32,000 nucleotides of DNA from Planctopirus limnophila DSM 3776 (GTDB taxonomy: Bacteria; Planctomycetota; Planctomycetia; Planctomycetales; Planctomycetaceae). Every line of letters begins with the position of its first letter. Position 1 is the first letter of the stretch. The notes under the pieces are model-generated. The model did not search any database. It was given only the letters and a program-made list of their open reading frames with translations, and was not told where the DNA came from. The DNA lies in assembly GCF_000092105.1 (NCBI RefSeq), contig NC_014148.1, positions 1,560,001 to 1,592,000 on the forward strand, written 5' to 3'. This document shows positions 1 to 14,972 of the stretch, in pieces. The position numbers were made by a program, and so were the translations under genes.

Positions 1-1725
1 GATGGGTTGGCCAGCGTCGTGAAGATCACAGACGACCTTAAAAATGGTCATCCATTTCCCCAGGCCACTCTTCCCGAATTTGGAGAGATCCTGCACGAAC
101 TCCGTCACAAGGGCTGCTTTCTCTCCCAGAAGAGATTTTGCGTATTCAACACCTTTTGTGAATTTCCGACCGGGAAGCAGAATTTTCCCCTGATTATCAA
201 ATCGCAACCAATCAAAGCCAGCGGCGGCAAAGACCGCTTTATGGCGAAGTTCCTGTGACCAGGGGCCAGCCTTCTGGGCGACAAATTTTGAATTGATGGC
301 ATGCCTGCGGAGATGTTTCAGGCCGAACATGTGCTTCTGAATGACAAACTCGTTGTTTGGTCTATCTGGTGCCAGATGAAGAAGCTCTTGCAGTAACAAG
401 CACAGAATCGCCGCATCGTCTTTGTAAGGTGTACCTGTTTCGGCAGTCGGAGATGAAACAATTTGCGGCTTTGGCGGTTGGATAACTTTTTCTACTTCCG
501 GCTGTTGAAAGGTCGGTTCATCAAAATCGATTTCCAGAGACTCAACATCCAGTTCACCGCTGATGAGTTTGGGAAGTAAGAGGTCACGGGTTTTGCGAAG
601 GATTTTGTTTTTTCTAAGGATATTTTCAATGTGCTTTACTACGGGGGTTGTAAGAACGTCAAACTTCTGAATTAAAAATGGTTGCGGAAGAATAATTTCA
701 AGATCCGCTATCAATTTTGTTGTCAGACTTCCACGAGAGCTACCGTCAGAGATCTGCCGGAACTGGTCATACCTTTGCACTAAATCAAAAAATAAAAAAC
801 TATCAGTAGTTTGCTTACCATCAGCCGTTACAGCAATTGTTGACTGATTGATGTAGCAATCTAGGCAAAGCATCGACGTTTGGCCACGAGTCTTGCCTTG
901 GCCCGCACTTGCAATAACAGTGCAGCCAGATCGTGCAAAACGGGTACTTGAATTAGTCACGCCCTCCTGTGTGATTTTCTTTTCAGTCTCTGTAATAAAG
1001 GTGTTTCCGGTTTCGCCGGATGATAGCCACGGAATATCACCATCCCAGTATTCATTGACATTAGTTCTTGGTGTCCCTCCGCTAGTAATTCTTTCGCAAA
1101 TTGAATCCAATCGTTTAACCTGCCAACCCTCAGGGATTTTGCCGAGTGGGGAATCGACGAGCAGGGTGTTTTCGTGGCCTGGGAAGCGGAAGTGGACGAA
1201 CCATTCCCGGTAAATGGCCTGGGCCATCTCTTCCAGAATGGCAATTCGCCGGGTGTTGTTCTCAATCAGATCATCATACGCCGAAAGAATCCCCGCAATT
1301 TTGCGTTGGACTGGCTCGGATGGAAATGTCAACTGTAAACCGTTCAAAATTGTTAAAGTCAAGAACTTGGTTGCGGCACCTGTGGATATACTTTGCAAAT
1401 GTTCAAGCAAGGGCCACATAGAGTAGTAAAGGAAACGCGTGTTGAGTCGCGTGCAATCTTGTGGCGTAACAACATACGTGCGTTGATACGCGTCAAATCG
1501 TCCGTGAAAATACTTTAGTGGATATATGCCGTTGGCATTGTTTCCGGCGAGTAACACACATTCTGTATCGAAGGCAAAAGTGTTTGTGCGAAGCGTCTCT
1601 TGCGAGCATGTAAAAAAGGGATATGCACCGTTTGATACAGCAGCATTTGAATTCAGCTTGCCCGTCTTGAAAGTCACTAGATTGCTAAGGGCGTCTGTCG
1701 TCCAGCCATTTGGAGGCATATTCAT
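1..1725 (-). CDS. hsdS: Type I restriction-modification specificity subunit HsdS (two target-recognition domains) fused in frame to a C-terminal extension of unknown function; 3' end beyond the window edge
   Basis: Own translation of the minus strand. ATG at 1725-1723 overlaps the hsdM stop (ATGA). No TTA/CTA/TCA triplet occurs in plus-strand frame 1 from nt 1 to 1752, so 575 codons are open. The ORF is missing from the supplied track because it has no stop inside the window. Protein starts [23 protein letters not shown]. Central conserved helix is [36 protein letters not shown] and distal conserved helix is [19 protein letters not shown], which is the classic TRD1-CR1-TRD2-CR2 HsdS layout. 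At least 180 further residues follow. Confidence 0.85.
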
Positions 1726-3323
1726 AATGCTGCCTCCAACAATTTGACGACGTTAACGGCAATTCGTTCTTCCAACTCACGGGCTTCACTGTTGAGAACT
1801 TCCAGTTCTTCACTCAGTTCTTCCAGCCGTTCGGCAAACACAAAATCGTCCGGGGCTTTGTCGGCAACTCCCACATACCGGCCTGGGTTCAAACTCCAGC
1901 CCTGGGCTTCAATTTCCTGGAGTGTGGCGATTTTGCAGAGTCCAGCCACATCCGCATACTTCAGCTTCGGGAAGGTGGCTTTCAGGTCTGGTTCGACTCC
2001 AGGAAACTCCAGGTCGTCTCCAGCGGTGAATTCGGGTTGTTCACCACGATAGAGCCGCACGATATTGGCAATGTATTCGAGTTGCTTCGGGCTGAATTTG
2101 CGGTGGGCACGATCCACCTGCCGGAAGATGTGCCGAGCATCAATGAAGAGCACCTGCTCTTTCCGCTGGGAACCTTTCCCGCTGAGATTGCTTTTCCCTT
2201 TATCGAGGAACCAGAGCGTGCAGGGCAACGTGACCGTGTAGAAGAAGTTCGGGCCAATGGCAATCATCACATCCACCACATGAGCCTTGAGCAGCTTCTG
2301 GCGGATTTCCATTTCGGATTGCCGGGCATCGGCGGCACTGTTGGCCATGACAAAGCCAGCCCGGCCTGTGGCATTCAATGACGAGTAGAACAACTCAATC
2401 CACAGGTAATTGGCATTGTCGGCTCGGGGCATTCCCAAAGGAAACCGGGGATCTTCCTTAAGCTTCTCCTTATCGACTTTGTCCACATTGAAGGGAGGAT
2501 TGGCCATCACGAAATCAAACTTGCCCACGGATTCATGAGGGTCTTCGTAATAGGTGTTCCCCTGGCGGATGTCTCCTGATAAGCCGTGAACTGCCAAGTT
2601 CATCTGGCATAGCTGACGGGTTTCATCCACGCGTTCTTGTCCGTAGATCGAAATCTCGACAGCAGGGTTGTTGTGGTGAGCTTTGATGAAGTCAGCCGAT
2701 TGCACAAACATTCCGCCTGAACCACAGGCAGGATCGTATATGCGGCCATGGTAAGGTTGAATGATTTCGACAATCAGTTTCACCAATGAGGTGGGAGTAA
2801 AGAACTCACCCCCTTTTTGACCTTCGGCTCGGGCAAAGTTCCCCAGGAAGTATTCGTAAATCTTCCCGAACGTATCTCCTTCGGCATCCACAGGGATGGA
2901 GGAAAGATTTTTGAGCAGAGAGACCAGCGTGGTGTTCTCAATTTTGCTGTAAGTTTTGGGAAGAATGCCTTTGAGTTCTTCGTTCTCTTTTTCAATGGCT
3001 TTCATAGCCGTAGTGATGGCCTTGCCGATGTCTTCACCTTCGGGAAGTTCCAGCAGAGCGGAGAAGCGGGATTCTGGCGGGAGGAACATCACCCCTTTGG
3101 CTTGAAAATCTTCTTTGCCAATAGCCCGACGGCTGCCGCTCTTTTTCGCAAAGAGAACATTCAGTTCTCGTTCGGCCTGGGTAAACCGGTGATCGGCATA
3201 CCGCAGGAAGATCAGCCCCAGCACGGGAACCGAATACTCGGACGATTTCAGTTTGCTGTTAGCCCGCAATTCATCTGCGGAAGCCCACAAGCGGCGTTCT
3301 ATTTCGGTGTGTCCGTTGGCCAT
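1722..3323 (-). CDS. hsdM: Type I restriction-modification DNA methyltransferase subunit HsdM (N6-adenine)
   Basis: ORF 1722..3437 in the track. It has an HsdM N-terminal-type segment ([17 protein letters not shown]...[14 protein letters not shown]), AdoMet motif I ([10 protein letters not shown]) and catalytic motif IV NPPF (VMANPPFN). Start placed at the internal Met ([13 protein letters not shown], nt 3323) by analogy with HsdM N-termini; the longest ORF starts at 3437. Confidence 0.9.
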
Positions 3324-3493
3324 GGATAGAGGAGCAGTCTTAAGGGGGAAGCCGTCATTAGAAAAATGTTGTACCAGTGAAAAAGAGTAGATGATTGGTG
3401 AACCCTTCGAAAGGGTGTTTGCATGGGAGAGATTCATCAGCCTTTATTCCAGGTGACTGATTTTCGGTTTGTGTAGGTCAGGCAAGAGTGTGT

Positions 3494-3526
3494 TCCATTT
3501 TCCCCATACTCCAAGGGTGTATGGCA
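3494..3526 (+). repeat. Copy A of the island repeat motif (tCCATTTTCCCCA-N2-CTCCA-N-GGG..GT.TGG)
   Basis: tccattttccccatactccaagggtgtatggca. It aligns with copy B at 6024. Weaker shared tail (tgttcag.tttt) after a 17-nt insertion in A. Lies in the hsdM/orf438 divergent intergenic region. Confidence 0.7.
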
Positions 3527-3869
3527 CCCTCTCATGGGTGTGTTCTTGTGTTCAGTTTTAATGCGCTTTTGGGTAAGTTTGGCCGAGCCTCAGAAATCGC
3601 TCGTAGATCGCTTTGGTTGCCGGGATGATGGATTGTTCGTCCTGGGCCACGAGAGGCGATTTCCGGGCCAGCGAGAGGCCTTAATGACGATGAGAGCGTG
3701 TCCGGGATGAACGGTTTTTGATCAGTCATCGATGCTTGGTGTGTTCTTTTGTTCATGTTTGTGTGAAATTCACAACCCAAGTGCAGGTTTTAAGTTGCGT
3801 CAAATTCCAGTGCTGCTGTTATGCTCACAACGACCTGATTGTGAGTTTCTTCCAGACACATGAGGTTTC

Positions 3870-5186
3870 ATGTCCGAGCTGCCAGCCGTTTTGCGTGCCT
3901 ATCGTCGGGAGTTCGAGCTGTTCCGGGGGAAATATGGAACAGTGGGAGTTGTCATTCTCTGCAAGTTGGATTGGAAATCTGCCGGTATAGAGTTCCCAGC
4001 CACTGGCTGCTCACCACCAGATCACGTTTGGGATTTGACGGAAGACAAGATTTTGTGGGCCAGAGAGTTTCCAAGTCGTGCTCCCGAGCCAAACGACACA
4101 GAAGCTGATCCATTTCAACGCGTTATTCGTTTTGATGGCCGGTCTGACCAGTCTTTTCAGGGAGCGGGATTACGTTCGGCTCAACTGCAAATTTTGGCCA
4201 GCTCTGCTGATGAGCTGTCGGAGTGCCAACTCCCAGAGAACCCAGCCACCAGCTCATTACAGTCAAGATCGTATGCCACGCCAGATGGCCAGATCTTGCA
4301 GGTGACAAATTCCACTTCCTCCACAACATCCAGACATCAGCTCTCTGGTGGAGTTATGGAACTGAGGTTTTTCGGACAGTTGCACGGTTTTGATTTTGAA
4401 CTGGAGAAGCTTCAGAAAAACGTTTTGAAGGCTCTGGAGAACTGGTGGCCAGCTTCAGAGATTCTGAGAGAGTTCTGCCCAGCCTTGAAGTTTTCGTGCA
4501 CTCCCATTTTACAGGCTCATCTGTGGGCCGAATTGGTTTACTGGGTGAGCCAATCGAAATTTGTGCATTCACCCTATGTGATTGAGAAGTGGATTCCTGC
4601 ACAGACGTCTTACAACATCAAACGGAAACTCTGGTCTTCTCTCTCCCAGAAGAAAACAGGAATGTCTTCAATTCCTGCTGACAGAATCCCCATCTGTTGG
4701 TGCAGTGGCCTGAAGGATTTGGCAGCAGCTTCTGTGGTCTTCCTGGATGTGCTGGCGGAACGATTTGGCAAAAGCTCTTCAGCAGTGGCAATCATTCCGC
4801 CTGAGCCAGCCACAAACCTGGAGCCAATCATTACAGGCAGTGCTCCAGCAGGTGGAGAAGCAACGCCAGCCAGCAAACTCAACGCATGGCCTGAAGAAAT
4901 CAAAGAAAAATTGTTGAATACTGCAACGCCTCTTGAGCAGCGGATTATCAGGTTTTTCTGGGAGAGAAAGCACGCATCCGACATTCAAAGTCTAATTGAT
5001 GCTGCCTGGGGAGATAAGCCAGACACTTCGGTTGAAACTGTGAAAAAGGCAATTCAGCGGCTCAATCTGAAATTTGCAGACAACCTGACAATTTCGTTTC
5101 ATCCCAGCACAGACCGAGTTCAGTTCGAGCTATTGAAGCATTCAGGCAATTCCCAGCAGCCGGACAAATCAGCGGACAAATTTTAG
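3870..5186 (+). CDS. Hypothetical protein (438 aa), no recognisable N-terminal family; C-terminal winged-helix-like DNA-binding domain
   Basis: Long ORF with no competing frame. The C-terminal segment LEQRIIRFFWERKHASDIQSLIDAAWGDKPDTSVETVKKAIQRLNLKF resembles the OmpR/PhoB Trans_reg_C pattern (..LL..VWG......TV.V.I.RLR.KL). No Walker, nuclease or RT motifs were noticed. Confidence 0.7.
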   Translation: MSELPAVLRAYRREFELFRGKYGTVGVVILCKLDWKSAGIEFPATGCSPPDHVWDLTEDKILWAREFPSRAPEPNDTEADPFQRVIRFDGRSDQSFQGAGLRSAQLQILASSADELSECQLPENPATSSLQSRSYATPDGQILQVTNSTSSTTSRHQLSGGVMELRFFGQLHGFDFELEKLQKNVLKALENWWPASEILREFCPALKFSCTPILQAHLWAELVYWVSQSKFVHSPYVIEKWIPAQTSYNIKRKLWSSLSQKKTGMSSIPADRIPICWCSGLKDLAAASVVFLDVLAERFGKSSSAVAIIPPEPATNLEPIITGSAPAGGEATPASKLNAWPEEIKEKLLNTATPLEQRIIRFFWERKHASDIQSLIDAAWGDKPDTSVETVKKAIQRLNLKFADNLTISFHPSTDRVQFELLKHSGNSQQPDKSADKF

Positions 5187-5281
5187 GACATGGCTGTCCC
5201 CTGATTTGTCGGCCTCTCGTGGCATAGTTCCCCTACCGCATCAACGACGAGCGGAGAACATGACCTGTGAGAGAGGTGATT

Positions 5282-5503
5282 ATGTCCAAGTCCTTAATTC
5301 GTGCTCCTTCATTACGCCAGCTTCCACCACCTGCCGAAATTCGGCGTGACCTGGGAGCCATCACCAGGGAGGCCGCTTTCCTGCGTTCCATGCTCAAGCT
5401 ATCAGAACGCTTACACCGTCATTTGGAACTGATTCAAACACTTCAATCCATTCAGGGAGATTCCAAGCATGTCCAGTGTAACCGCAGCCAGCCCAGCCGA
5501 TGA
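5282..5503 (+). CDS. Small hypothetical protein (about 73 aa), predicted helical
   Basis: ATG at 5282 is preceded by gagaggtgatt (SD-like). The ORF sits between orf438 and the HTH gene and overlaps the latter by 35 nt. No family recognised. Confidence 0.4.
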   Translation: MSKSLIRAPSLRQLPPPAEIRRDLGAITREAAFLRSMLKLSERLHRHLELIQTLQSIQGDSKHVQCNRSQPSR

Positions 5504-5720
5504 TTTCCACAGCAACCCTAACGAGAAACTTTTGATATCTGCTAAGGAGGCAGCTCGGCGGCTATCTATCAGTGAGCGTAGTCTATGGTCTTTAACGAAC
5601 CAACGCCGAATTCCCACTATTCGAATCGGACGAAGTGTTCGTTATTCCGTGATTGGCTTGGAAGAGTGGATTCGGCAGTCCACCCAGAGTCAGTACCGGG
5701 GGGGAGGTTCCCGAACCTGA
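5469..5720 (+). CDS. Excisionase / AlpA-type helix-turn-helix DNA-binding protein
   Basis: LLISAKEAARRLSISERSLWSLTNQRRIPTIRIGRSVRYSVIGLEEWIRQ matches the excisionase-family HTH (HTH_17-like) pattern. Located next to an integrase. Confidence 0.75.
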   Translation: MSSVTAASPADDFHSNPNEKLLISAKEAARRLSISERSLWSLTNQRRIPTIRIGRSVRYSVIGLEEWIRQSTQSQYRGGGSRT

Positions 5721-5849
5721 CGTTGTCCAAGATACCGCCCCCGGTGCCTGAAATGTGCCGCACCGAAAAGTCACCAGGAAAAGGGCCGGAAAGTGAGCAA
5801 ATCTTGTGCTTTTTCAGCAAAAGCCAACGAAGGGCACCCTGGCTAGCCT

Positions 5850-6018
5850 CCTCACGTGCACGCGTGCGTAATTATTATATTATATATTTAATAATTACAA
5901 TTTCTGAAGTTTCTCTGGGAGTTGGTTATTATCTAATAACCAACTCCCAGAGAAGATAATAAGGCTCTTTAAGAGACTTTATTATGGTTGTGTAATTAAC
6001 GCACGCACGCACGTGAGG
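5850..6018. repeat. Composite structured non-coding region: imperfect 25/26-bp inverted repeats flanking an AT tract and two palindromes
   Basis: Left arm is cctcacgtgcacgcgtgcgtaatta (5850-5874). Right arm is taattaacgcacgcacgcacgtgagg (5993-6018), differing by 1 indel and 2 mismatches. Both arms are alternating purine/pyrimidine tracts. nt 5871-5900 contains a single C. Confidence 0.85.
5911..5954. repeat. Perfect 44-bp palindrome (21-bp arms, 2-nt centre)
   Basis: ttctctgggagttggttatta-tc-taataaccaactcccagagaa; arms verified base by base as exact reverse complements. Followed by an imperfect palindrome at 5956-5985 (ataataaggctctt/aagagactttattat). Confidence 0.95.
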
Positions 6019-6023
6019 GGCTG

Positions 6024-6060
6024 TCCATTTTCCCCACGCTCCAGGGGGGGTGTGTGGTGC
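6024..6060 (+). repeat. Copy B of the island repeat motif
   Basis: tccattttccccacgctccagggggggtgtgtggtgc, starting 4-6 nt after the right inverted-repeat arm. Confidence 0.7.
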
Positions 6061-6087
6061 GTTTGTTCAGGTTTTTGCCAGTGCAGG

Positions 6088-6123
6088 CCATTTTCCCCAC
6101 GGTTTAGGGGTATGTACATAGGG
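6088..6123 (+). repeat. Copy C (more diverged) of the island repeat motif
   Basis: gccattttccccacggtttaggggtatgtacatagg shares the CCATTTTCCCCAC core and the GGG block. It lies 64 nt downstream of copy B in the same orientation. Confidence 0.55.
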
Positions 6124-6226
6124 TTTCACCCCCTCTTTCACGAAATGGTTTTTCAATTTCTCCACACTGTTTGAGTGCCGAAATCGTATGATTTGCACCC
6201 CGGTGAGGTGATTAAGGTACTATCTC

Positions 6227-6268
6227 CCAGAAAATCAGACCGATTTTAGAGATCATCCAGAAAATCAG
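6227..6268 (+). promoter_or_regulatory. Two 12-bp direct repeats (CCAGAAAATCAG) 30 bp apart, just upstream of the integrase start
   Basis: ccagaaaatcag at 6227-6238 and 6257-6268. An aaaatc/gatttt dyad lies between them. The int ATG is at 6289. Confidence 0.4.
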
Positions 6269-6288
6269 CATCCAGGAAGGTTTTTTAT

Positions 6289-7764
6289 ATGTCCAGCGTC
6301 TTCAAACGAAATGGCAAAGGCAATTACTACGCAACGTGGTTTGACCATCTGGGAAACCGCATGACTCAATCCACGAGAACATCTGATAAAGCAGCGGCTG
6401 AAAGAATTGTGAAGCAGTGGGAAGCACAGGCTGCACTTCGTCGTGAGAATGTGATTGATCCCAGAATGGAAACCTTGACAAAGCAAGGGCAGCTTTCAGT
6501 GGAAAGCCACTTGAAAGACTTCGAGGCTTCCATGGTCTCTTCCAATCGTACGGACAAGCATGTCCAACATGTCGTGGGAGTTGTCCGCAAGATTTCAGCA
6601 GCAGCACACTTTGGACGCATCAATGAAATTTCTGCGGAAGGCGTCAACCGGTACGCTTCCTCATTGAAAGGCAAACGTTCTTTACGAACGATTCAATCCC
6701 ATCTTTCTGCCATGAAGGCATTCACGCTCTGGCTGTGGAGAAATCACAAACTTTCTGTTGACCCTCTTTCGTCTATCCGTCTGCCAGATCCAAGAAAAGA
6801 GCGTCGGAGAACCCGCCGATTTCTTTTGGTTGAAGAGTTTGATTGGTTAAAAGCGGTCACTGAGGCCAGCCCACGAGCTTTCGGGATGTCTGGTTACGCC
6901 AGAGCCTTGCTGTACGAACTGGCCATCGTTTCGGGGCTCCGTTCGGCAGAACTTCGCAGCTTGAAGAAGTCTAACTTTGTGCTGAAGACTGATCAGCCGC
7001 ACGTGTTGTGTTTGGCTCATGCCACCAAGAATCGGAAAAAGTGCCGCCAATACCTTCCATCTGATCTGGCAGCAAGATTGGATGAATTCCTGAAATCAAA
7101 GCGTGACAACGAAGTAGCCTTTGACATGCCACGCTCCGAACGTATTCCCAAAATGTTGCGTGCTGATCTTTTGGCTGCACGTAAAGCCTATCTGTCATCT
7201 GATGAAATCCATCTCCCAGAGAAACAAAAACGTCAGCAAGATGAATTCCTTTGTGATTCGACATCGGAGGGAGTTCTCGACTTTCACTCATTGCGGCACA
7301 CTTGCGGAGTTTGGCTGAGTCAGGCTGGAGCGAATCCCAAAGCCATCCAGGCAATCATGCGCCACAGCACCATTACCTTAACCATGGATACATACGGTCA
7401 TCTGCTGCCTGGAGAGCAGGCAGGGCTTGTGGATCTGGTGACTGAGTACCAAAAAGCCAAAATCGGCCACAAATCCGACGACGACCTACAGCGCAAATTA
7501 CAGCAGTCAGAGAGCGGAGCAGTGCGGAAGGTTGCGGCTGTGTGCCAGAAGGCTGACCAGTCAGCACGTGGCGACAGTCCGCATAACTCATTGCCAGAGA
7601 ACGAATTATGCGAACCCGTGCGAGCCGTTGCTGTGAGAAACGAAACTACGCCCATGTGGATTCGAACCACAGACCGTCGGATTAGAAATCCGATGCTCTA
7701 TCCAGCTGAGCTATGGGCGCGAGTCATCTTGATCGAGGATCAAGATCTGCATGTATTGCAATGA
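6289..7764 (+). CDS. int: Tyrosine site-specific recombinase (phage-type integrase) with a long C-terminal tail
   Basis: Catalytic signature: LAIVSGLRSAELRSL (Arg), HSLRHTCGVWL (H-x-x-R), MRHSTITLTMDTYGHL (His...Tyr369). N-terminal SAM-like domain. The ORF stays open for 122 codons after the catalytic Tyr and crosses tRNA-Arg on the opposite strand. Confidence 0.9.
   Translation: MSSVFKRNGKGNYYATWFDHLGNRMTQSTRTSDKAAAERIVKQWEAQAALRRENVIDPRMETLTKQGQLSVESHLKDFEASMVSSNRTDKHVQHVVGVVRKISAAAHFGRINEISAEGVNRYASSLKGKRSLRTIQSHLSAMKAFTLWLWRNHKLSVDPLSSIRLPDPRKERRRTRRFLLVEEFDWLKAVTEASPRAFGMSGYARALLYELAIVSGLRSAELRSLKKSNFVLKTDQPHVLCLAHATKNRKKCRQYLPSDLAARLDEFLKSKRDNEVAFDMPRSERIPKMLRADLLAARKAYLSSDEIHLPEKQKRQQDEFLCDSTSEGVLDFHSLRHTCGVWLSQAGANPKAIQAIMRHSTITLTMDTYGHLLPGEQAGLVDLVTEYQKAKIGHKSDDDLQRKLQQSESGAVRKVAAVCQKADQSARGDSPHNSLPENELCEPVRAVAVRNETTPMWIRTTDRRIRNPMLYPAELWARVILIEDQDLHVLQ
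7647..7720 (-). tRNA. tRNA-Arg (anticodon UCU)
   Basis: Minus strand folds by hand into a cloverleaf: GCGCCCA-TA-GCTC-AGCTGGATA-GAGC-A-TCGGA-TTTCTAA-TCCGA-CGGTC-TGTGG-TTCGAAT-CCACA-TGGGCGT-A. It has a 7-bp acceptor stem (G1-U72 wobble), a GG D-loop, a TTCGAAT T-loop and anticodon TCT. CCA is not encoded. Confidence 0.9.
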
Positions 7765-8404: not shown

Positions 8405-10459
8405 ATGGAGTTGACACGGATGTCCGAACAATGGCTGTGGAGTTCACGGGTGCGCCCCGTTGTTGATGGCTCAGGTTCTCACTCACAGAACGTGGTGGAT
8501 CGCGCGACTTACTCCGGGCGGTCAACAGGTTCACTTTTCAGTAACTCCAGTATTCAACTCCGAACGAGCCTGGCGCTGGCGTTGATGATTACCCTGATGT
8601 GCCCGGGCCGCGAAGCTCAAGCACAGGTGACTGCCAAGCAGATTCTCCAGGCTTACTCGCCTCGACAAAAGGATGTCGATTATGAGGTGCCAACGCCCGC
8701 TGATCTGGAAAAATGCCAGGTGACTGTCGAACGGCTGGGCAAAGTCTCTGGATACGTGGTGCTGGGTGCTCAGGGCCAGTTACTTCGTCGCTTCATGGAT
8801 ACCAACGGTGATAACAAAGTTGACCAGTGGCGCTACTACAATCACGGAATTGAGGTCTACCGCGACGTCGATTCCAACTTCAACGAGAAACCCGATCAGT
8901 TTCGTTATGTGAATCTGGGCGGAAGTCGCTGGGGAATCGATCAGAATGAAGATGGTAAAGTCGATTCATGGAAATCCATTTCTGCCGCAGAAGTCTCTCG
9001 AGAAGCCATCAAGTCGATGACAACTGGGGATTTTGGCCTGTTGGAGACGTTGCTGATCAATGCGGCTGATTTGCGAACTCTGGGAGTTAACGCCGCACTG
9101 CAAAAGAAAATGCTCGAGAATGTCAGCCAGCCGGAAGCCAAAGTGCGGCAGATTTTCTCCAAGTCCAGAGATTTCACACCGAAGTCTGTCTGGGTGCGAT
9201 TTGATGCATTAATGCCCGGATCCATTCCTGCGGACGACGGAAAAGCCGAGACCGATCTTCAGGTTTACGAAAATGCGATGTGCATTGTTGATAACGGTGG
9301 GGGCAAGACCGCGCTGATTCAGTTAGGGGAACTGGTACGCGTGGGCGATGCCTGGAAATTGACTCAGATCCCTGAACCGATTGGAAGCGATTCGATTACC
9401 GTCGCAGGTGGTGTGTTGATGCAGCCACTCTTGGCCAGCGCTGAAAGTGCGGCTCCCTCGGTCTCCCCGGAAATGCAGGCTTTGCTGGATAAGCTACAGA
9501 AACTGGATGCTTCCTCGGCTTCCCTGGCTGGCACACCGGAAGCCATGGCGAAGTTCAACAATGCTCGCATTGAACTGCTCCTGCAGATCGTGAATGCCAC
9601 CACTTCTGAAGATGACAAAGAGCAGTGGATGCAGCAATTGGCCGATGGTTATGCCGCTGCTATTCAGACGGGCCAGGGTGGAGACAGTCTGGATCGATTA
9701 AAGGATATGGAAACGAAGCTCAAAAAAGATGCAGCAGCTTCCCCACTGGTGCCTTATGTCACTTACCGTCGCATGTTGGCCCAGTACAGCGTCGAAATGA
9801 ATACCGCGAATGAGGCCAAGCGGGCGGATATTCAGAAAGCATGGCTGGAAAGCCTCGAAGGATTCATTACGACCTATCCGAACTCAGAAGATGCCAGCGA
9901 AGCGATGCTGCAACTGGCGATTACCGAAGAGTTCAATGGCCGTATCAAAGAAGCCGTCGCCTGGTACAGCAAGCTGGCAGCGGCACAGCCTCAATCCATC
10001 GCGGGGAAAAGGGCCGCTGGTGCAGTAACTCGAATTCAACTCAATGGGCAGCCACTGAAGCTTTCGGGAACTTTGCTTGAGGGTGGGAGTTTCAATGTAT
10101 CGCAACTGAAAGGGAAGGCAGTTCTGGTGGTCTACTGGGCCACATGGTGCCAGCCTTGTGCAGCCGATCTCCCTCAGATTCGAGCCCTTTACGAACAGTA
10201 TCGCGCACAGGGATTTGAAATTGTAGGCGTCTGCCTTGATGTGGATACGTCACCTCAGGACGTGAACAAATTCCGCGTGGAAAACAAGATGCGCTGGCCG
10301 CAGATCTACGAGCGAGGTGGTCTGGAAAGTCCGGCGGCTGTCCAACTGGGTGTCATCACATTGCCTACGATGATTCTGACAGATCGAGCTGGTCGTGTGG
10401 TGAACCGTGGAGCCACAGTTCAGGATTTGAAGACGACTTTACCCCAGATCCTGAAGTAA
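8405..10459 (+). CDS. Secreted multidomain TlpA-like thiol-disulfide oxidoreductase (thioredoxin fold at C-terminus)
   Basis: C-terminal VLVVYWATWCQPCAADLPQIRALYEQYRAQGFEIVGVCLD is the redoxin/TlpA WCxxC motif. A signal-like segment LRTSLALALMITLMCPGREAQA lies about 55 residues into the ORF, so the true start may be downstream (for example GTG near 8490). The middle is TPR-like and helical. Confidence 0.85.
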   Translation: MELTRMSEQWLWSSRVRPVVDGSGSHSQNVVDRATYSGRSTGSLFSNSSIQLRTSLALALMITLMCPGREAQAQVTAKQILQAYSPRQKDVDYEVPTPADLEKCQVTVERLGKVSGYVVLGAQGQLLRRFMDTNGDNKVDQWRYYNHGIEVYRDVDSNFNEKPDQFRYVNLGGSRWGIDQNEDGKVDSWKSISAAEVSREAIKSMTTGDFGLLETLLINAADLRTLGVNAALQKKMLENVSQPEAKVRQIFSKSRDFTPKSVWVRFDALMPGSIPADDGKAETDLQVYENAMCIVDNGGGKTALIQLGELVRVGDAWKLTQIPEPIGSDSITVAGGVLMQPLLASAESAAPSVSPEMQALLDKLQKLDASSASLAGTPEAMAKFNNARIELLLQIVNATTSEDDKEQWMQQLADGYAAAIQTGQGGDSLDRLKDMETKLKKDAAASPLVPYVTYRRMLAQYSVEMNTANEAKRADIQKAWLESLEGFITTYPNSEDASEAMLQLAITEEFNGRIKEAVAWYSKLAAAQPQSIAGKRAAGAVTRIQLNGQPLKLSGTLLEGGSFNVSQLKGKAVLVVYWATWCQPCAADLPQIRALYEQYRAQGFEIVGVCLDVDTSPQDVNKFRVENKMRWPQIYERGGLESPAAVQLGVITLPTMILTDRAGRVVNRGATVQDLKTTLPQILK

Positions 10460-10654: not shown

Positions 10655-11824
10655 ATGCTGAGTGACACCACCCTTCGCGATGGTGAGCAGATGCCCGGAG
10701 CGACCCTGGAGCCCGAAGAGAAACGAGAAATTGCTCTGGCTCTCGAAGCTGCCGGGATTCACTCGCTTGATGCAGGCTTTCCCGCCAGTTCTCAACAGGA
10801 TTTTGATGCGATTCGACTGATGGCCCAGGTGATCAAACGGCCTGTGATGACGGCCCTTTGCCGAACAGTCGAGGGAGATGTTGACGCCGCGGATGAGGCT
10901 TTAGCCGGTCTGGCACCTCATAAAAGAGGGGTGAGTCTGTTCATTGGGACCAGTCCTCTGCATCGGGAATATAAGCTCAGAAAATCTCGCACTGAGGTTC
11001 TCTCGATCATTGATCGATCGGTACGGTACGCCTCGAAAAAGTTTGATATTGTGGCCTTCAGCCCGGAAGATGCCAGTCGGACAGAAGCAGACTTTCTGGT
11101 GGAATGCTACGAAACAGCCATCCAGGCCGGTGCGACAACCATCGGCTATCCGGATACCGTCGGTGTTCTGACACCTGAGAGGGCGTACGTTGCCATTCGT
11201 CATGTGATGGAGCATGTTCCATCGATTAGGAAAGTTCTGGTTGCGGTGCACATGCACAATGATCTGGGCCTCGCGGTGGCGAACAGCCTGGCTGGATTAA
11301 CGGCTGGTGCTCACATTGTGCAATGCACAGTTAATGGGATTGGTGAGCGGGCCGGAAATGCAGCCTTGGAAGAAGTGGCCATGGCGCTCTATGTCAATCA
11401 GGAGCAGTATGGCCGTGCAGTGAAGCTCAACTATGAGTCACTCTTTCCGCTCTGCCAGTTGGTCGCGAAAAAGACTGGCGTACCGATGGCTTTGAATAAA
11501 CCCGTGGCAGGCCGCACGATTTTTGCGACAGAAGCCGGAATTCATCAGGACGGCCTGCTCAAGCATCCGGATACTTATTTGCCCTATCGGCCGGAAGTCG
11601 TCGGAGGTCCCGCGATTGAACTTGTGCTGGGGAGGCATAGTGGCAAAGGTGCCGTGGCTCATCATCTGCAGAATCTGGGGTATCAGGCGACCGATGCCCA
11701 TGTGATGTTCATTCTCAATCAGATTAAAGGCATGCCTCGCGGCGCATTGATTGACAAGGCACAGATCCACGAGTGGATGAATCAAAAGCCTCATCATGCG
11801 GAAACAGGCATTAAAGTAGCTTGA
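10655..11824 (+). CDS. HMGL-like 2-isopropylmalate / homocitrate / citramalate synthase family protein (short form, no LeuA regulatory domain)
   Basis: [18 protein letters not shown]...[22 protein letters not shown], plus [21 protein letters not shown] and [17 protein letters not shown]. Start placed at the Met just before the LRDGEQ motif; the longest ORF begins at 10487. Confidence 0.85.
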
Positions 11825-11861
11825 AACAGCGATCCGAGGGCTTTGAAAGCAATTGGGTAAG

Positions 11862-12281
11862 TTATTTCTTCCGGGAACCAGAAGTTTGTCTGCGGTTCGA
11901 AGTGAGCTGACCCGTGGCAAATTCTTCACGGCGGGTACGGCTGCCCACACCGATGGTGCGAAATGGAAGTGCTGCCATCTCGCCGACGCGAGGCATGGGC
12001 GTCCCGCGGTAATACACCCGGCGGATCGTATTCCCGTAGAAGTGCAAGGGACGGTAAGGCCTCAGCTCGATAGGCGTCGCATCGATCTGTGTTCTCAATG
12101 GGCCGGTCGCCACTACAACGGGAAGCCAGCCTGGCTCCTCGAGTGATGTTTCATTCGCCAGGGCGGTGGAGGCTGTCCCCACCAGCATCAGCAGCATGGC
12201 TGGTAATGTGCACAGGGAAGAAGTTCGAGAAACTTTTTGTGAGCAGCCAGGGAACCCGAGGTGAGATGAGTGCTTGAACAT
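11862..12281 (-). CDS. Hypothetical small secreted protein
   Basis: ORF 11862..12371. The internal Met at 12281 gives a signal-peptide-like LCTLPAMLLMLVGTASTALA followed by a basic C-terminal half. Competes with an antisense 97-aa ORF. No family recognised. Confidence 0.4.
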   Translation of the reverse strand: MFKHSSHLGFPGCSQKVSRTSSLCTLPAMLLMLVGTASTALANETSLEEPGWLPVVVATGPLRTQIDATPIELRPYRPLHFYGNTIRRVYYRGTPMPRVGEMAALPFRTIGVGSRTRREEFATGQLTSNRRQTSGSRKK

Positions 12282-12632
12282 AGGCTCATTTTGTGATGTG
12301 CTGCCGACCTGAAACACAGATGTTTCTCTTTCCGTCTGGAAATGAAGATGCATGCTCGAGACCTTCGCCAAGCTCTACAACGTTGATTCGCAATGAACAT
12401 CGGATCTTCGATCAGCGAGTGAGAACCTTTGCTGGGCGATCAGTGGCAAAAACCGCCTGACGCTTGACGATGCCGAAAAAGAACTTATGACCGTTAAAAT
12501 TGATCATGCTGCTCCCCGTTGTTTGAAGTTCCATTTGGTTGGAACTGTGGCCGGTGATTGAAAAGCCGCCAGTGACTTGGGGATCGAGTGAATCATTTGT
12601 AGGCTGTTTACGGGATATAGGGCTTGTAATCC

Positions 12633-14972
12633 ATGCACGGGTTGCAGCCACTCAGTTCAGCATTCAGGGAGGAAAGCTTGGTCAGTATGGTGGACGTTAC
12701 TGATTTGGCTGATTGCGAAATCACCCGTGAAAAACTCGATCAAGCTTCGAGTTCTCAATTCGTCGCTCAAGGTTCCTGCCTCAATGAAGCTCGTTTGTTA
12801 CTTCAACGACTTTGGGGATACGAAGATTTTCGGCCTCTTCAAGAACAGGTGATTCAAGCTTTGCTCGCTGGGCGGGAAAGTGTCGTGGTGCTTCCCACGG
12901 GCGGCGGGAAATCACTGTGCTACCAGGTTCCCGCTCTGTTAAAGCCAGGCCTGGCGATTGTCGTTTCACCGTTGATTTCACTGATGTTTGATCAGGTGTC
13001 GTCACTTCAGGAAGTAGGTGTTGCAGCTGCGGCCATTCACAGCGGGTTGTCCAATCAGGAGCGGCAGCAGATTGCCGGTCAGATCCGCTCGGGTGAACTT
13101 CGATTGCTCTACCTTTCTCCTGAGCGATTGATGACCGACCGGATGTTGGGCTTTCTCGAGCAAGTCCCGCTTTCCATGCTGGCCATTGATGAAGCTCACT
13201 GCATCAGTGACTGGGGACACGATTTTCGCCCGGAATATCGGATGCTTTCGGGCTTGAAAGATCGCTTTCCACAACTCCCCATCCATGCATTTACGGCAAC
13301 CGCCACACAGGAAGTTCGTCAGGATATCGCCCGGCAACTCGGCCTGGCCAATCCTCAATTCCATGTCGGATCATTTGATCGACCGAATTTGATCTACCGG
13401 GTCATCCCCAGAGAAGATCGAGATCAGCAGGTGATTTCGACCATCCGGCGGCATCCCGGAGAATCAGGTGTCGTCTACTGTCTCCGCAGAAAAGATGTCG
13501 ACGATGTAACGACGATGCTCAAGCAGGCCGGATTTCGAGCACTCCCTTACCATGCCGGTCTGCCCGATGAAGAGCGGCATGCCAACCAGCATGCATTTCT
13601 CAATGATCATGTCGAGATCATCGTCGCGACAGTCGCCTTTGGCATGGGGATTGATAAGTCGGATGTCCGGTTCGTCATCCACACCGGTGCACCAAAATCT
13701 TTAGAAGCTTACCAGCAGGAAAGTGGTCGGGCAGGTCGCGATGGACTCGATGCCGAGTGCTGGCTCTTTTATGCCCAGGGGGATTTTGCTTTATGGCGTA
13801 GCTTGCAGGCTAATCTTCCAGAGAAGGCTCAACAGACAGCGCAGCAGGTCCTGGCTGGAATGGAAGGGTTCTGCCAATCGACAAAATGTCGACATCGAGC
13901 GATTATCGAATACTTTGGACAGGCGGGGGAATCGGGTGAATGTGGTGCCTGCGATATCTGTCTGGGCGAACTGACGGAAGTTGAAGATTCGTTGGTGGTC
14001 TCGCAAATGATTCTCTCTTGTGTCGTAAGAGTCGAACAAAGTTTCGGGGCAGATCATGTTTGTAAAGTGCTGGTGGGATCGCGCGCCAAAAACATCCTTA
14101 ATCGTGGGCATGACCAACTGAGCACATTTGGATTGTTGAAGGGCGTGGACTTGAAAGTCCTGCGCCATTGGATCGAGCAACTCATCTCGCAAAGTTTTCT
14201 CGAACGATATGGCGAGTACGGCCTCCTGCGGGTCACGCCGGCAGGTCGGCTTGTTTTGAAGGGTGTCCAGAGCCCGCAATTACTCGTCGCGAATTCGACC
14301 TCGTTCAGACAGACAGGTGTTGCTCAAGTGGCGTGGGCAGGTGTTGATCGTGAACTCTTCGAAGAGTTGCGTGATTTGCGAAGGCAACTGGCAACAGAGC
14401 GTGGAGTGCCCCCATTTATCATTTTCGGAGATGCTCCACTGCGGGAGATGGCGGCTGTCCGTCCGTTGAGTACGATCAGTTTTCGACAGATTCGTGGGAT
14501 TGGAGATAAAAAGACCAGCCTGTACGGCGAGGTCTTTGTCGCTGTGATTTCGCGGTATTGTCACGAACGCAATCTGGCTGGCGATCAGTTTGCCGTGAGA
14601 GAACAAAGTCAAAACTCTCCACCGGCAACTGTCGATCAAAGCCCGCCGATCAAGCGAGAGCCCGGAGAGATCCAGAAGCGAGCATATGAATTGTTCTCCA
14701 GCGGGCAGGAGCTTGAGGCTGTGGCAAAAGTTCTAGAGCGAAGCCGATCCACTGTCGCGCAATATCTGGAAGAATACATTCTGGATCGGGGACTGCAGGA
14801 TGGTCTCCCGTGGGTTGAAAAGAGCGAGTTCTCTCAGATTGAGGGAGCTTTCGAGGCAGAGGATCACCGCCGATTGAAGCCCGCGTTTGACCGGCTGAAT
14901 GGTCAGGTCACCTACGAAAAATTGCGAGTCGTGCGCGCCTGCCTGCAGAATCGCGGCCACTGGCCCAAGTGA
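12633..14972 (+). CDS. recQ: ATP-dependent DNA helicase RecQ with a C-terminal HTH-like extension
   Basis: Motifs VLPTGGGKSLCYQVPAL (Walker A), DEAHCISDWGHDFRPEY (DEAH box), the RQC zinc cluster CRHRAIIEYFG...CGACDICLG, and an HRDC-like ELRDLRRQLATERGVPPFIIFGDAPLREMA. About 140 extra residues follow. Start is uncertain (12633 or 12687). Confidence 0.95.
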   Translation: MHGLQPLSSAFREESLVSMVDVTDLADCEITREKLDQASSSQFVAQGSCLNEARLLLQRLWGYEDFRPLQEQVIQALLAGRESVVVLPTGGGKSLCYQVPALLKPGLAIVVSPLISLMFDQVSSLQEVGVAAAAIHSGLSNQERQQIAGQIRSGELRLLYLSPERLMTDRMLGFLEQVPLSMLAIDEAHCISDWGHDFRPEYRMLSGLKDRFPQLPIHAFTATATQEVRQDIARQLGLANPQFHVGSFDRPNLIYRVIPREDRDQQVISTIRRHPGESGVVYCLRRKDVDDVTTMLKQAGFRALPYHAGLPDEERHANQHAFLNDHVEIIVATVAFGMGIDKSDVRFVIHTGAPKSLEAYQQESGRAGRDGLDAECWLFYAQGDFALWRSLQANLPEKAQQTAQQVLAGMEGFCQSTKCRHRAIIEYFGQAGESGECGACDICLGELTEVEDSLVVSQMILSCVVRVEQSFGADHVCKVLVGSRAKNILNRGHDQLSTFGLLKGVDLKVLRHWIEQLISQSFLERYGEYGLLRVTPAGRLVLKGVQSPQLLVANSTSFRQTGVAQVAWAGVDRELFEELRDLRRQLATERGVPPFIIFGDAPLREMAAVRPLSTISFRQIRGIGDKKTSLYGEVFVAVISRYCHERNLAGDQFAVREQSQNSPPATVDQSPPIKREPGEIQKRAYELFSSGQELEAVAKVLERSRSTVAQYLEEYILDRGLQDGLPWVEKSEFSQIEGAFEAEDHRRLKPAFDRLNGQVTYEKLRVVRACLQNRGHWPK

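Follow-up and report, generated by a model that had tools for sequence, protein, structure and literature searches.

The 32,000 nucleotide (nt) stretch of the Planctopirus limnophila DSM 3776 genome analysed here (NC_014148.1, positions 1,560,001 to 1,592,000, hereafter the window) opens inside a gene for HsdS, the specificity subunit of a Type I restriction-modification (R-M) system, in which the reading frame continues past the last conserved helix into an additional C-terminal domain. The question raised by this locus is what the additional domain, here designated the tail, is and what role it could have on a specificity subunit. Comparison of sequence profiles and of predicted folds related the tail to the C-terminal domain (CTD) of the antitoxin DarG, and it is very probable that both parts of this finding, a real fusion and a DarG-CTD homologue as the fused domain, are correct.

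Reading frame and architecture of the HsdS protein

As stated in the original prediction, which was made from the letters of the window, the minus-strand frame set by the ATG at nt 1725 is open down to nt 1, and translation of window 1-1725 gave 575 codons with zero stops; the remaining two minus-strand frames contain 4 and 12 stops over nt 1-560. The hsdS open reading frame (ORF) extends past the edge of the window, and for this reason only it is absent from the ORF tables. Its end was found by extension to the left, a step that had been advised at the outset, in Logan contigs retrieved with the exact HsdM product (L001 and L002) and with the HsdS product (L001 and L003). Contig L001 (SRR10279970; present in 3 samples) corresponds to window 1-7591 with 0 mismatches and reaches 326 nt beyond nt 1, and contig L003 (SRR9434984) corresponds to the hsdS part, window 1-1725, again with 0 mismatches. 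In both, the hsdS stop lies 135 nt past nt 1 and the gene has 620 codons. The complete HsdS is identical to the NCBI entry 'restriction modification system DNA specificity domain protein [Planctopirus limnophila DSM 3776]' (P0001).

Residues 1-392 (nt 550-1725, minus strand) make up a canonical HsdS, with a first target-recognition domain (TRD), a central conserved helix (nt 1308-1171), a second TRD and a distal conserved helix. The distal helix, expected at about nt 550-590, was located on the translation at nt 588-550, as was the central one at its own position. Methylase_S (PF01420, E 1.8e-27) matches in two stretches inside these residues and is the sole Pfam family found in the protein. 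In its two TRDs, in both conserved helices and in its coupling to hsdM this portion resembles the HsdS of EcoKI and EcoR124I, but whereas a canonical HsdS ends approximately 13 residues past the distal motif, the window protein adds approximately 230 residues. The added part consists of a flexible Pro/Glu-rich linker of 39 residues (393-431; nt 433-549, minus strand) and the tail, which starts with TPYKDD at nt 432 and occupies nt 1-432 of the minus strand (residues 432-575 of 620). The last 45 tail residues and the stop lie beyond nt 1 of the window, and the complete tail has 189 residues.

For the window protein 8000 HsdS homologues were retrieved. Among the 120 best, 95 have the distal motif and 85 of these stop at a median of 13 residues past it, which identifies the tail as a true add-on. 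The other 10 motif-bearing homologues run on for at least 198 residues beyond the motif, and in seven of them, one from Rubinisphaera brasiliensis, the extension is the tail of the window protein (50-58% identity); the TRDs of these proteins are entirely different. In the remaining three the extension is of another, unrelated kind. An alignment of six tails (A1; 50-58% identity) has 58 invariant columns, and at the position of the linker all homologues have a low-complexity spacer variable in both sequence and length.

Identification of the tail as a DarG-type C-terminal domain

A Pfam scan of the 575 aa disclosed nothing in the tail. The NCBIfam model antitoxin_DarG (NF048014) matched the window protein weakly (E 0.031, positions 140-225 of 338) and matched 47 of 62 proteins of the tail family, with a best E of 8e-10. 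The PADLOC DarG model (PDLC02990) aligned with the window tail at E 7.1e-5 over the whole CTD (tail 8-179 against profile 166-327 of 329) and matched 14 of 21 diverse tails (best E 2.7e-13). Among PDB sequences, the profile A4, built from 21 diverse tails, had one significant match, 7yk3_B, 'DNA ADP-ribosyl glycohydrolase' (E 2.7e-4), in which the motifs QKLMYF, YGPYS, ELLASTHW and KWTK...YSD were aligned. Comparison of A4 by hhalign with an E. coli DarG encoded in an hsdM-hsdS-darT-darG-hsdR island gave a probability of 95.4% (E 1.8e-8) across DarG residues 173-353 of 355.

An AlphaFold2 (AF2) model of the tail built with A4 had a pLDDT of 96.3 and a pTM of 0.91, and the Pro-rich linker followed by a globular-looking domain that had been noticed by eye is thus a linker followed by a confidently predicted fold. 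In the Foldseek search of the PDB the only significant matches were 7yk3_D (E 2.8e-5, TM-score 0.65) and 7yk3_B (E 9.2e-5, TM-score 0.60), both over the full length, and the runner-up after the 7YK3 chains had an E of 0.46. An earlier AF2 model from six sequences was mediocre (pLDDT 80.8) and was superseded by the 21-sequence model; its best Foldseek match was identical. The region after residue 395 or so, for which profile searches and structure prediction had been proposed, therefore matches the DarG CTD by PADLOC, hhalign and Foldseek.

By sequence profile and predicted fold, the window tail is homologous over its whole length to the part of DarG that sequesters DarT, its CTD. This domain was shown to bind and sequester DarT in the case of DarG from enteropathogenic E. 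coli (PMC7003065). The whole 189-residue tail aligns in profile and fold with the DarG of DarTG2, with the motifs QK..Y, GPY/W, LE..AT and W..K....F in common. In DarG, however, the CTD is joined to a glycohydrolase, while in the window protein it is joined to HsdS; the macrodomain and the neighbouring darT likewise belong to DarG and not to the HsdS-tail protein, and no Pfam or NCBIfam match to the DarG macrodomain (ADP-ribosyl glycohydrolase) was found on the 575 aa.

The original prediction had loosely likened the tail to the SocA/Panacea (DUF4065) pattern. As a Pfam-level assignment this was rejected, as neither the window tail nor any of 20 diverse relatives scored with DUF4065 (PF13274), although the threshold was relaxed to E<=10. 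At the level of the superfamily the resemblance probably holds, since homology between DUF4065/Panacea proteins and the DarG CTD has been stated (PMC13621843, 2026) and the tail motif matched by eye, VIQKHMF...AGPWS, corresponds to IQKLMYF...YGPYS of the DarG CTD. A phage 'SocA-like Panacea' model in BFVD is a weak fold match to the tail (E 0.16, probability 0.69). On these motifs and profiles, the tail probably falls within the Panacea/DUF4065 superfamily, on its DarG-CTD branch, and its nearest defined family is DarG-CTD and not SocA/PanA. With PanA and SocA it shares the QKLLY...GP motif as well as promiscuity in fusion partners and contexts. The bicistronic pairing with a toxin gene that marks Panacea antitoxins is not seen here: the tail-bearing hsdS genes have neither an adjacent toxin gene nor a conserved neighbour in the visible loci.

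It was also observed that the PADLOC models MTase_I and Specificity_I match 5 and 3, respectively, of the 21 tail-only sequences; some seeds of these models may already include the tail, unnoticed.

Distribution of the tail

An exhaustive profile search with A1 gave 185 cluster representatives (clusters defined at 50% identity) at E<=1e-3, in which the domain is always C-terminal. The N-terminal parts were surveyed in 149 listed representatives. An HsdS-like N-terminal part occurs in at least 105 (105 of the 149 listed; 79 of the 105 are full length), so that a covalent fusion to HsdS, at first thought unusual, is carried by at least 105 clusters. The possibility raised at the same time, that the tail is a common component of some HsdS family and has been described before, was borne out as regards its frequency but not its description, which was found neither in Pfam, nor in NCBIfam as an HsdS feature, nor in the searchable literature. 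Literature searches on HsdS with DarG, on HsdS C-terminal extensions and on DUF4065 with the specificity subunit or restriction did not return the fusion. As far as these searches reach, the joining of a Type I specificity subunit, or of its relatives, to a DarG-CTD/Panacea-type domain is an undescribed fusion, and the domain is without a Pfam family. Definition of such a family would improve the annotation of many proteins now named 'restriction endonuclease subunit S'.

The tail is not specific to Type I systems. P0193 (1542 aa) carries it on an Eco57I/MmeI-type single-chain enzyme, and it is found at the C-terminus of PglX/Alw26I-like methylase fragments; besides P0193, the proteins P0150, P0166, P0167, P0224 and P0247, which are either Eco57I/MmeI-type enzymes or PglX/Alw26I-like fragments, have it. 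Other members are P0153, a non-R-M protein where the tail is fused to an HTH_3 domain, and a family of approximately 295 aa with an N-terminal domain of approximately 110 aa of no known family followed by the DarG-CTD-like domain. Stand-alone tail-domain proteins of approximately 200 aa are among the representatives, and some members are small and antitoxin-like. One member of the 295-aa family is P0162 of contig L010 (3817-4701, within 2964-4701). The gene before it encodes 261 aa with a weak sigma-70 region-4 helix-turn-helix (HTH), and an AbiEi/AbiEii pair lies alongside; this arrangement may be an undescribed toxin-antitoxin-like cassette.

The relatives came from the exhaustive profile search, while a word-index search with the tail alone (160 aa) gave no match. 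No relative was found by tblastn in PLSDB plasmids or INPHARED phages with the window tail and a DarG-closer tail as queries, and no DNA-level relative of the locus was found in E. coli genomes, PLSDB plasmids or INPHARED phages. A scan of genome contigs with the tail alignment yielded only chance matches to GIDNWPGK in Mucilaginibacter FtsX-type permeases, which were discarded.

A second kind of HsdS C-terminal extension was noticed in P0060, P0069 and P0107. It has approximately 150-200 aa with repeats such as ALGY.R.G..I...L..AVRRGIL and no Pfam match, and kinship with the DarG-like tail was ruled out (hhalign probability 0.6%). P0060 and the window HsdS have their first TRD in common, and it appears that HsdS proteins can exchange their tails as modules.

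Gene content of related loci

The order of genes around the tail-bearing hsdS differs between related loci. The metagenomic island L008 comprises an HTH_17 gene, a homologue of a 438-aa gene of the window, hsdM, hsdS with the tail, a gene for a NOV_C protein, a 60-aa gene, hsdR and an AAA_21 gene. Contig L009 has a minimal operon of hsdM, the tail-bearing hsdS and hsdR, and L015 has hsdR, hsdM and the tail-bearing hsdS between housekeeping flanks. In L011 the tail-bearing hsdS is followed by housekeeping genes, and in L020-24 the order is hsdR, hsdM, GmrSD, tail-bearing hsdS, pP_pnuc_1 and an AAA_15/21 ATPase. Thus hsdR is present in the relatives L008, L009, L015 and L020.

Neither DUF4433 (DarT) nor a macrodomain was found in L001, L008, L009, L011, L015, L020-24 or the window, 326 nt downstream being read at the source locus. 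A tblastn search of the window together with all loci (282 kb), in which two DarT proteins and two macrodomains of DarG served as queries, had a best E of 0.09. The original prediction had pointed out that Type I loci can host an embedded accessory gene of the PrrC kind; no PrrC- or DarT-like toxin gene is present in the visible loci, and that idea was not sustained. The arrangement hsdS-darT-darG-hsdR does occur in contig L026, and DarTG is often placed between hsdS and hsdR in Type I operons (PMC5179494, PMC12255303).

In two unrelated islands a nuclease-like gene directly follows the tail-bearing hsdS, NOV_C in L008 (6010-7017) and pP_pnuc_1 in L020 (within 11889-14739). An AAA_15/21 ABC-type ATPase gene comes directly after pP_pnuc_1 in L020, within the same interval, and, in L008, after the 60-aa gene and hsdR (10724-13099). 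The nuclease-like gene and the ATPase could form a recurrent companion module.

Possible role of the tail

Type I R-M enzymes are regarded as built from three standard subunits, and their self-control is known mainly through ClpXP-dependent degradation of HsdR in E. coli. Because the tail is found on HsdS in more than 100 clusters and on Eco57I/MmeI-type enzymes, without DarT in the visible neighbourhoods, its distribution points to a function of the DarG-CTD/Panacea fold that is linked to the restriction complexes themselves. The characterised relatives act on proteins: the DarG C-terminus sequesters DarT (PMC7003065), PanA forms complexes with the toxin PanT, and SocA mediates proteolysis of SocB via ClpXP (PMC8832971). 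In EcoKI, self-protection involves degradation of HsdR by ClpXP (PMC4231737).

By analogy with these systems we propose, tentatively and as one possibility, that the tail serves as a protein-binding module on a tether, acts on the HsdR of its own system and provides a second, antitoxin-like layer of self-protection. On its flexible tether it would be built into the methylase core M2S1, its partner would be the toxic part of the system, namely the restriction and motor subunit HsdR, and HsdR would be held, restrained or handed over for proteolysis. This would constitute a self-protection layer of the type II antitoxin kind on top of methylation, in parallel to the two layers of DarG, enzymatic reversal and sequestration. 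A protein-binding role is proposed because all characterised members of the superfamily bind a toxic protein, and HsdR would be the most economical partner since operons with hsdR, hsdM and hsdS only exist and since single-chain Eco57I/MmeI-like enzymes carry the tail. A protease-adaptor version, acting with ClpXP as SocA does, is conceivable, and if the action on HsdR were confirmed it would amount to a built-in restriction alleviation analogous to SocA-ClpXP.

Several findings weigh against HsdR as the partner. No hsdR is present in the window, with 326 nt past nt 1 read at the source locus. The gene beside the tail-bearing hsdS varies, being NOV_C nuclease-like, pP_pnuc_1 or an Rv0078B-like antitoxin gene, and therefore partners other than HsdR are possible. 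The tails are, moreover, strongly basic: among R-M-associated tails the median net charge is +7 and the pI (isoelectric point) 9.3, with a pI>8 in 118 of 127, and a basic, winged-helix-like fold suits DNA binding at least as well.

A close rival, although a somewhat more doubtful one, is accordingly that the tail is an accessory nucleic-acid-binding domain which contacts DNA flanking the recognition site, or single-stranded DNA (ssDNA) or RNA, and aids affinity, target search or autoregulation of the operon. The tails fused to HsdS (n=99) have net charges from 0 to +14 (median +7, pI 9.3), while four genuine DarG CTDs, a small sample, are acidic to neutral (M. tuberculosis -3, E. coli -4, Zymomonas -1, B. 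thuringiensis +1; pI 5.6-7.8); since tails not fused to HsdS are mostly basic too, the charge is not specific to R-M. Deep et al. 2023, the paper on the 7YK3 structure, reportedly describes the DarG of M. tuberculosis, to go by its title, as a mimic of ssDNA, and the difference in charge argues against such a role for the tails, within the limits of the small DarG sample. The N-terminal subdomain of the tail partly matches the winged helices of MUS81, DpnI, IdeR and KAT6A in Foldseek (probability 0.4-0.75), but these matches are non-significant (E>0.7). Nucleic-acid binding would fit the want of a conserved partner gene and the fact that the host proteins are all DNA-specificity proteins, yet in the HTH_3 fusion P0153 the tail would be a redundant binder, and we know of no member of the DarG-CTD/Panacea superfamily for which DNA binding is recorded.

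The proposal of a protein-binding tail can also be put more broadly, with M2S1 as a protein-level regulator of a toxic partner, by which HsdR is clamped or delivered to a protease, or an unlinked DarT-like toxin is held and released upon anti-restriction attack by a phage. In this wider form we consider it rather questionable; if true, it would account in physical terms for the link between DarTG and Type I R-M operons, which has long been noted but not explained.

Taken separately, the second of these options, in which an unlinked toxin or other effector, DarT-like or not, is tethered by the tail and stays latent on HsdS until a phage disables the complex, seems unlikely. Its model is PrrC-EcoprrI, where an accessory defence protein, a nuclease encoded by a separate gene, is kept latent by the Type I enzyme. 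The likeness is one of concept only, a second defence-related module being physically associated with the Type I complex; the HsdS tail, in contrast, is an antitoxin-type binding domain without catalytic motifs and is fused to HsdS. Direct binding is the means by which DarG-CTD and Panacea domains neutralise toxins, and the frequent position of DarTG between hsdS and hsdR, as in L026, and the NOV_C and pP_pnuc_1 genes directly after hsdS in L008 and L020 are in line with an unlinked toxin. Against it stand the lack of a conserved neighbour of the tail-bearing hsdS, the three-gene operons flanked by housekeeping genes and the lack of DarT in the 282 kb of related loci. If such a toxin were nevertheless involved, the system would be a restriction-coupled abortive-infection switch.

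It is very improbable that the tail is a functionless relic of an hsdS-darT-darG-hsdR island in which darT and the macrodomain were lost by deletion, so that hsdS became joined to the C-terminal part of DarG. The required gene order exists (L026; PMC12255303) and the tail starts where the CTD starts in DarG models (approximately position 166 of 329), but at least 105 clusters at 50% identity retain the fusion, with the domain at full length and its core residues conserved, the confidence of the AF2 model is very high and the same tail occurs on other host proteins. A deletion may explain the origin of the tail, not its persistence. Finally, a sequencing or assembly artefact, in which an overlooked stop or a frameshift at about nt 540-600 would have joined two genes and against which a check of the reads had been advised, is of negligible probability and effectively excluded, because the two independent assemblies, from separate SRA runs, match with 0 mismatches, show no in-frame stop or frameshift there and both give the 620-aa gene, and because the fusion recurs in many lineages. 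These readings do not take up the whole probability, and the rest falls to some other role.

For the proposed action of the tail on its protein partner, a single extra domain that can be deleted from its flexible linker offers a simple test system.

The genomic island of P. limnophila

The hsdM gene (571 aa; 1722-3437, minus strand; HsdM_N and N6_Mtase on the identical product) precedes hsdS, whose ATG at 1725 overlaps the hsdM stop as ATGA; the two genes are co-oriented and translationally coupled. On the plus strand there follow a gene for a 438-aa protein with no match in the Pfam scan (3870-5186), an HTH_17 excisionase-like gene (5469-5720; PF12728, E 1.1e-10) and a tyrosine integrase ORF at the island border (6289-7764; Phage_integrase, E 8e-15). 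The attachment site of the island is a tRNA-Arg(TCT) gene (7647-7720, minus strand; ARAGORN), which the listed integrase ORF overlaps by approximately 118 nt on the opposite strand, and housekeeping genes begin at 8405. In P. hydrillae (L017) the same tRNA lies between Redoxin/DUF2256 genes and an Rv0078B-like pair, with no integrase and no hsdMS. Because P. hydrillae keeps the tRNA and flanks without integrase and hsdMS, window 1 to approximately 7646 is taken as a tRNA-integrated island.

The 438-aa protein shares 28% identity (E 3e-40) with the product of a 368-aa gene (L008:892-1998, minus strand) in L008, an unrelated island which likewise has a tail-bearing hsdS; in both islands the gene lies between the HTH_17 gene and hsdM, and the protein may be an island regulator or a defence component. 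The gene after hsdS in P. limnophila encodes the Rv0078B-like antitoxin Plim_1219 (L001:7732-7917; PF18993, E 7e-17). Plim_1214, five locus tags off, is a 90%-identical paralogue, and this near-identity may explain why both Logan contigs end at the same point. In P. hydrillae (L017:10001-10808) the partner of the Rv0078B-like gene is a protein of 195 aa with a weak match to the AbiEii nucleotidyltransferase (E 0.0026).

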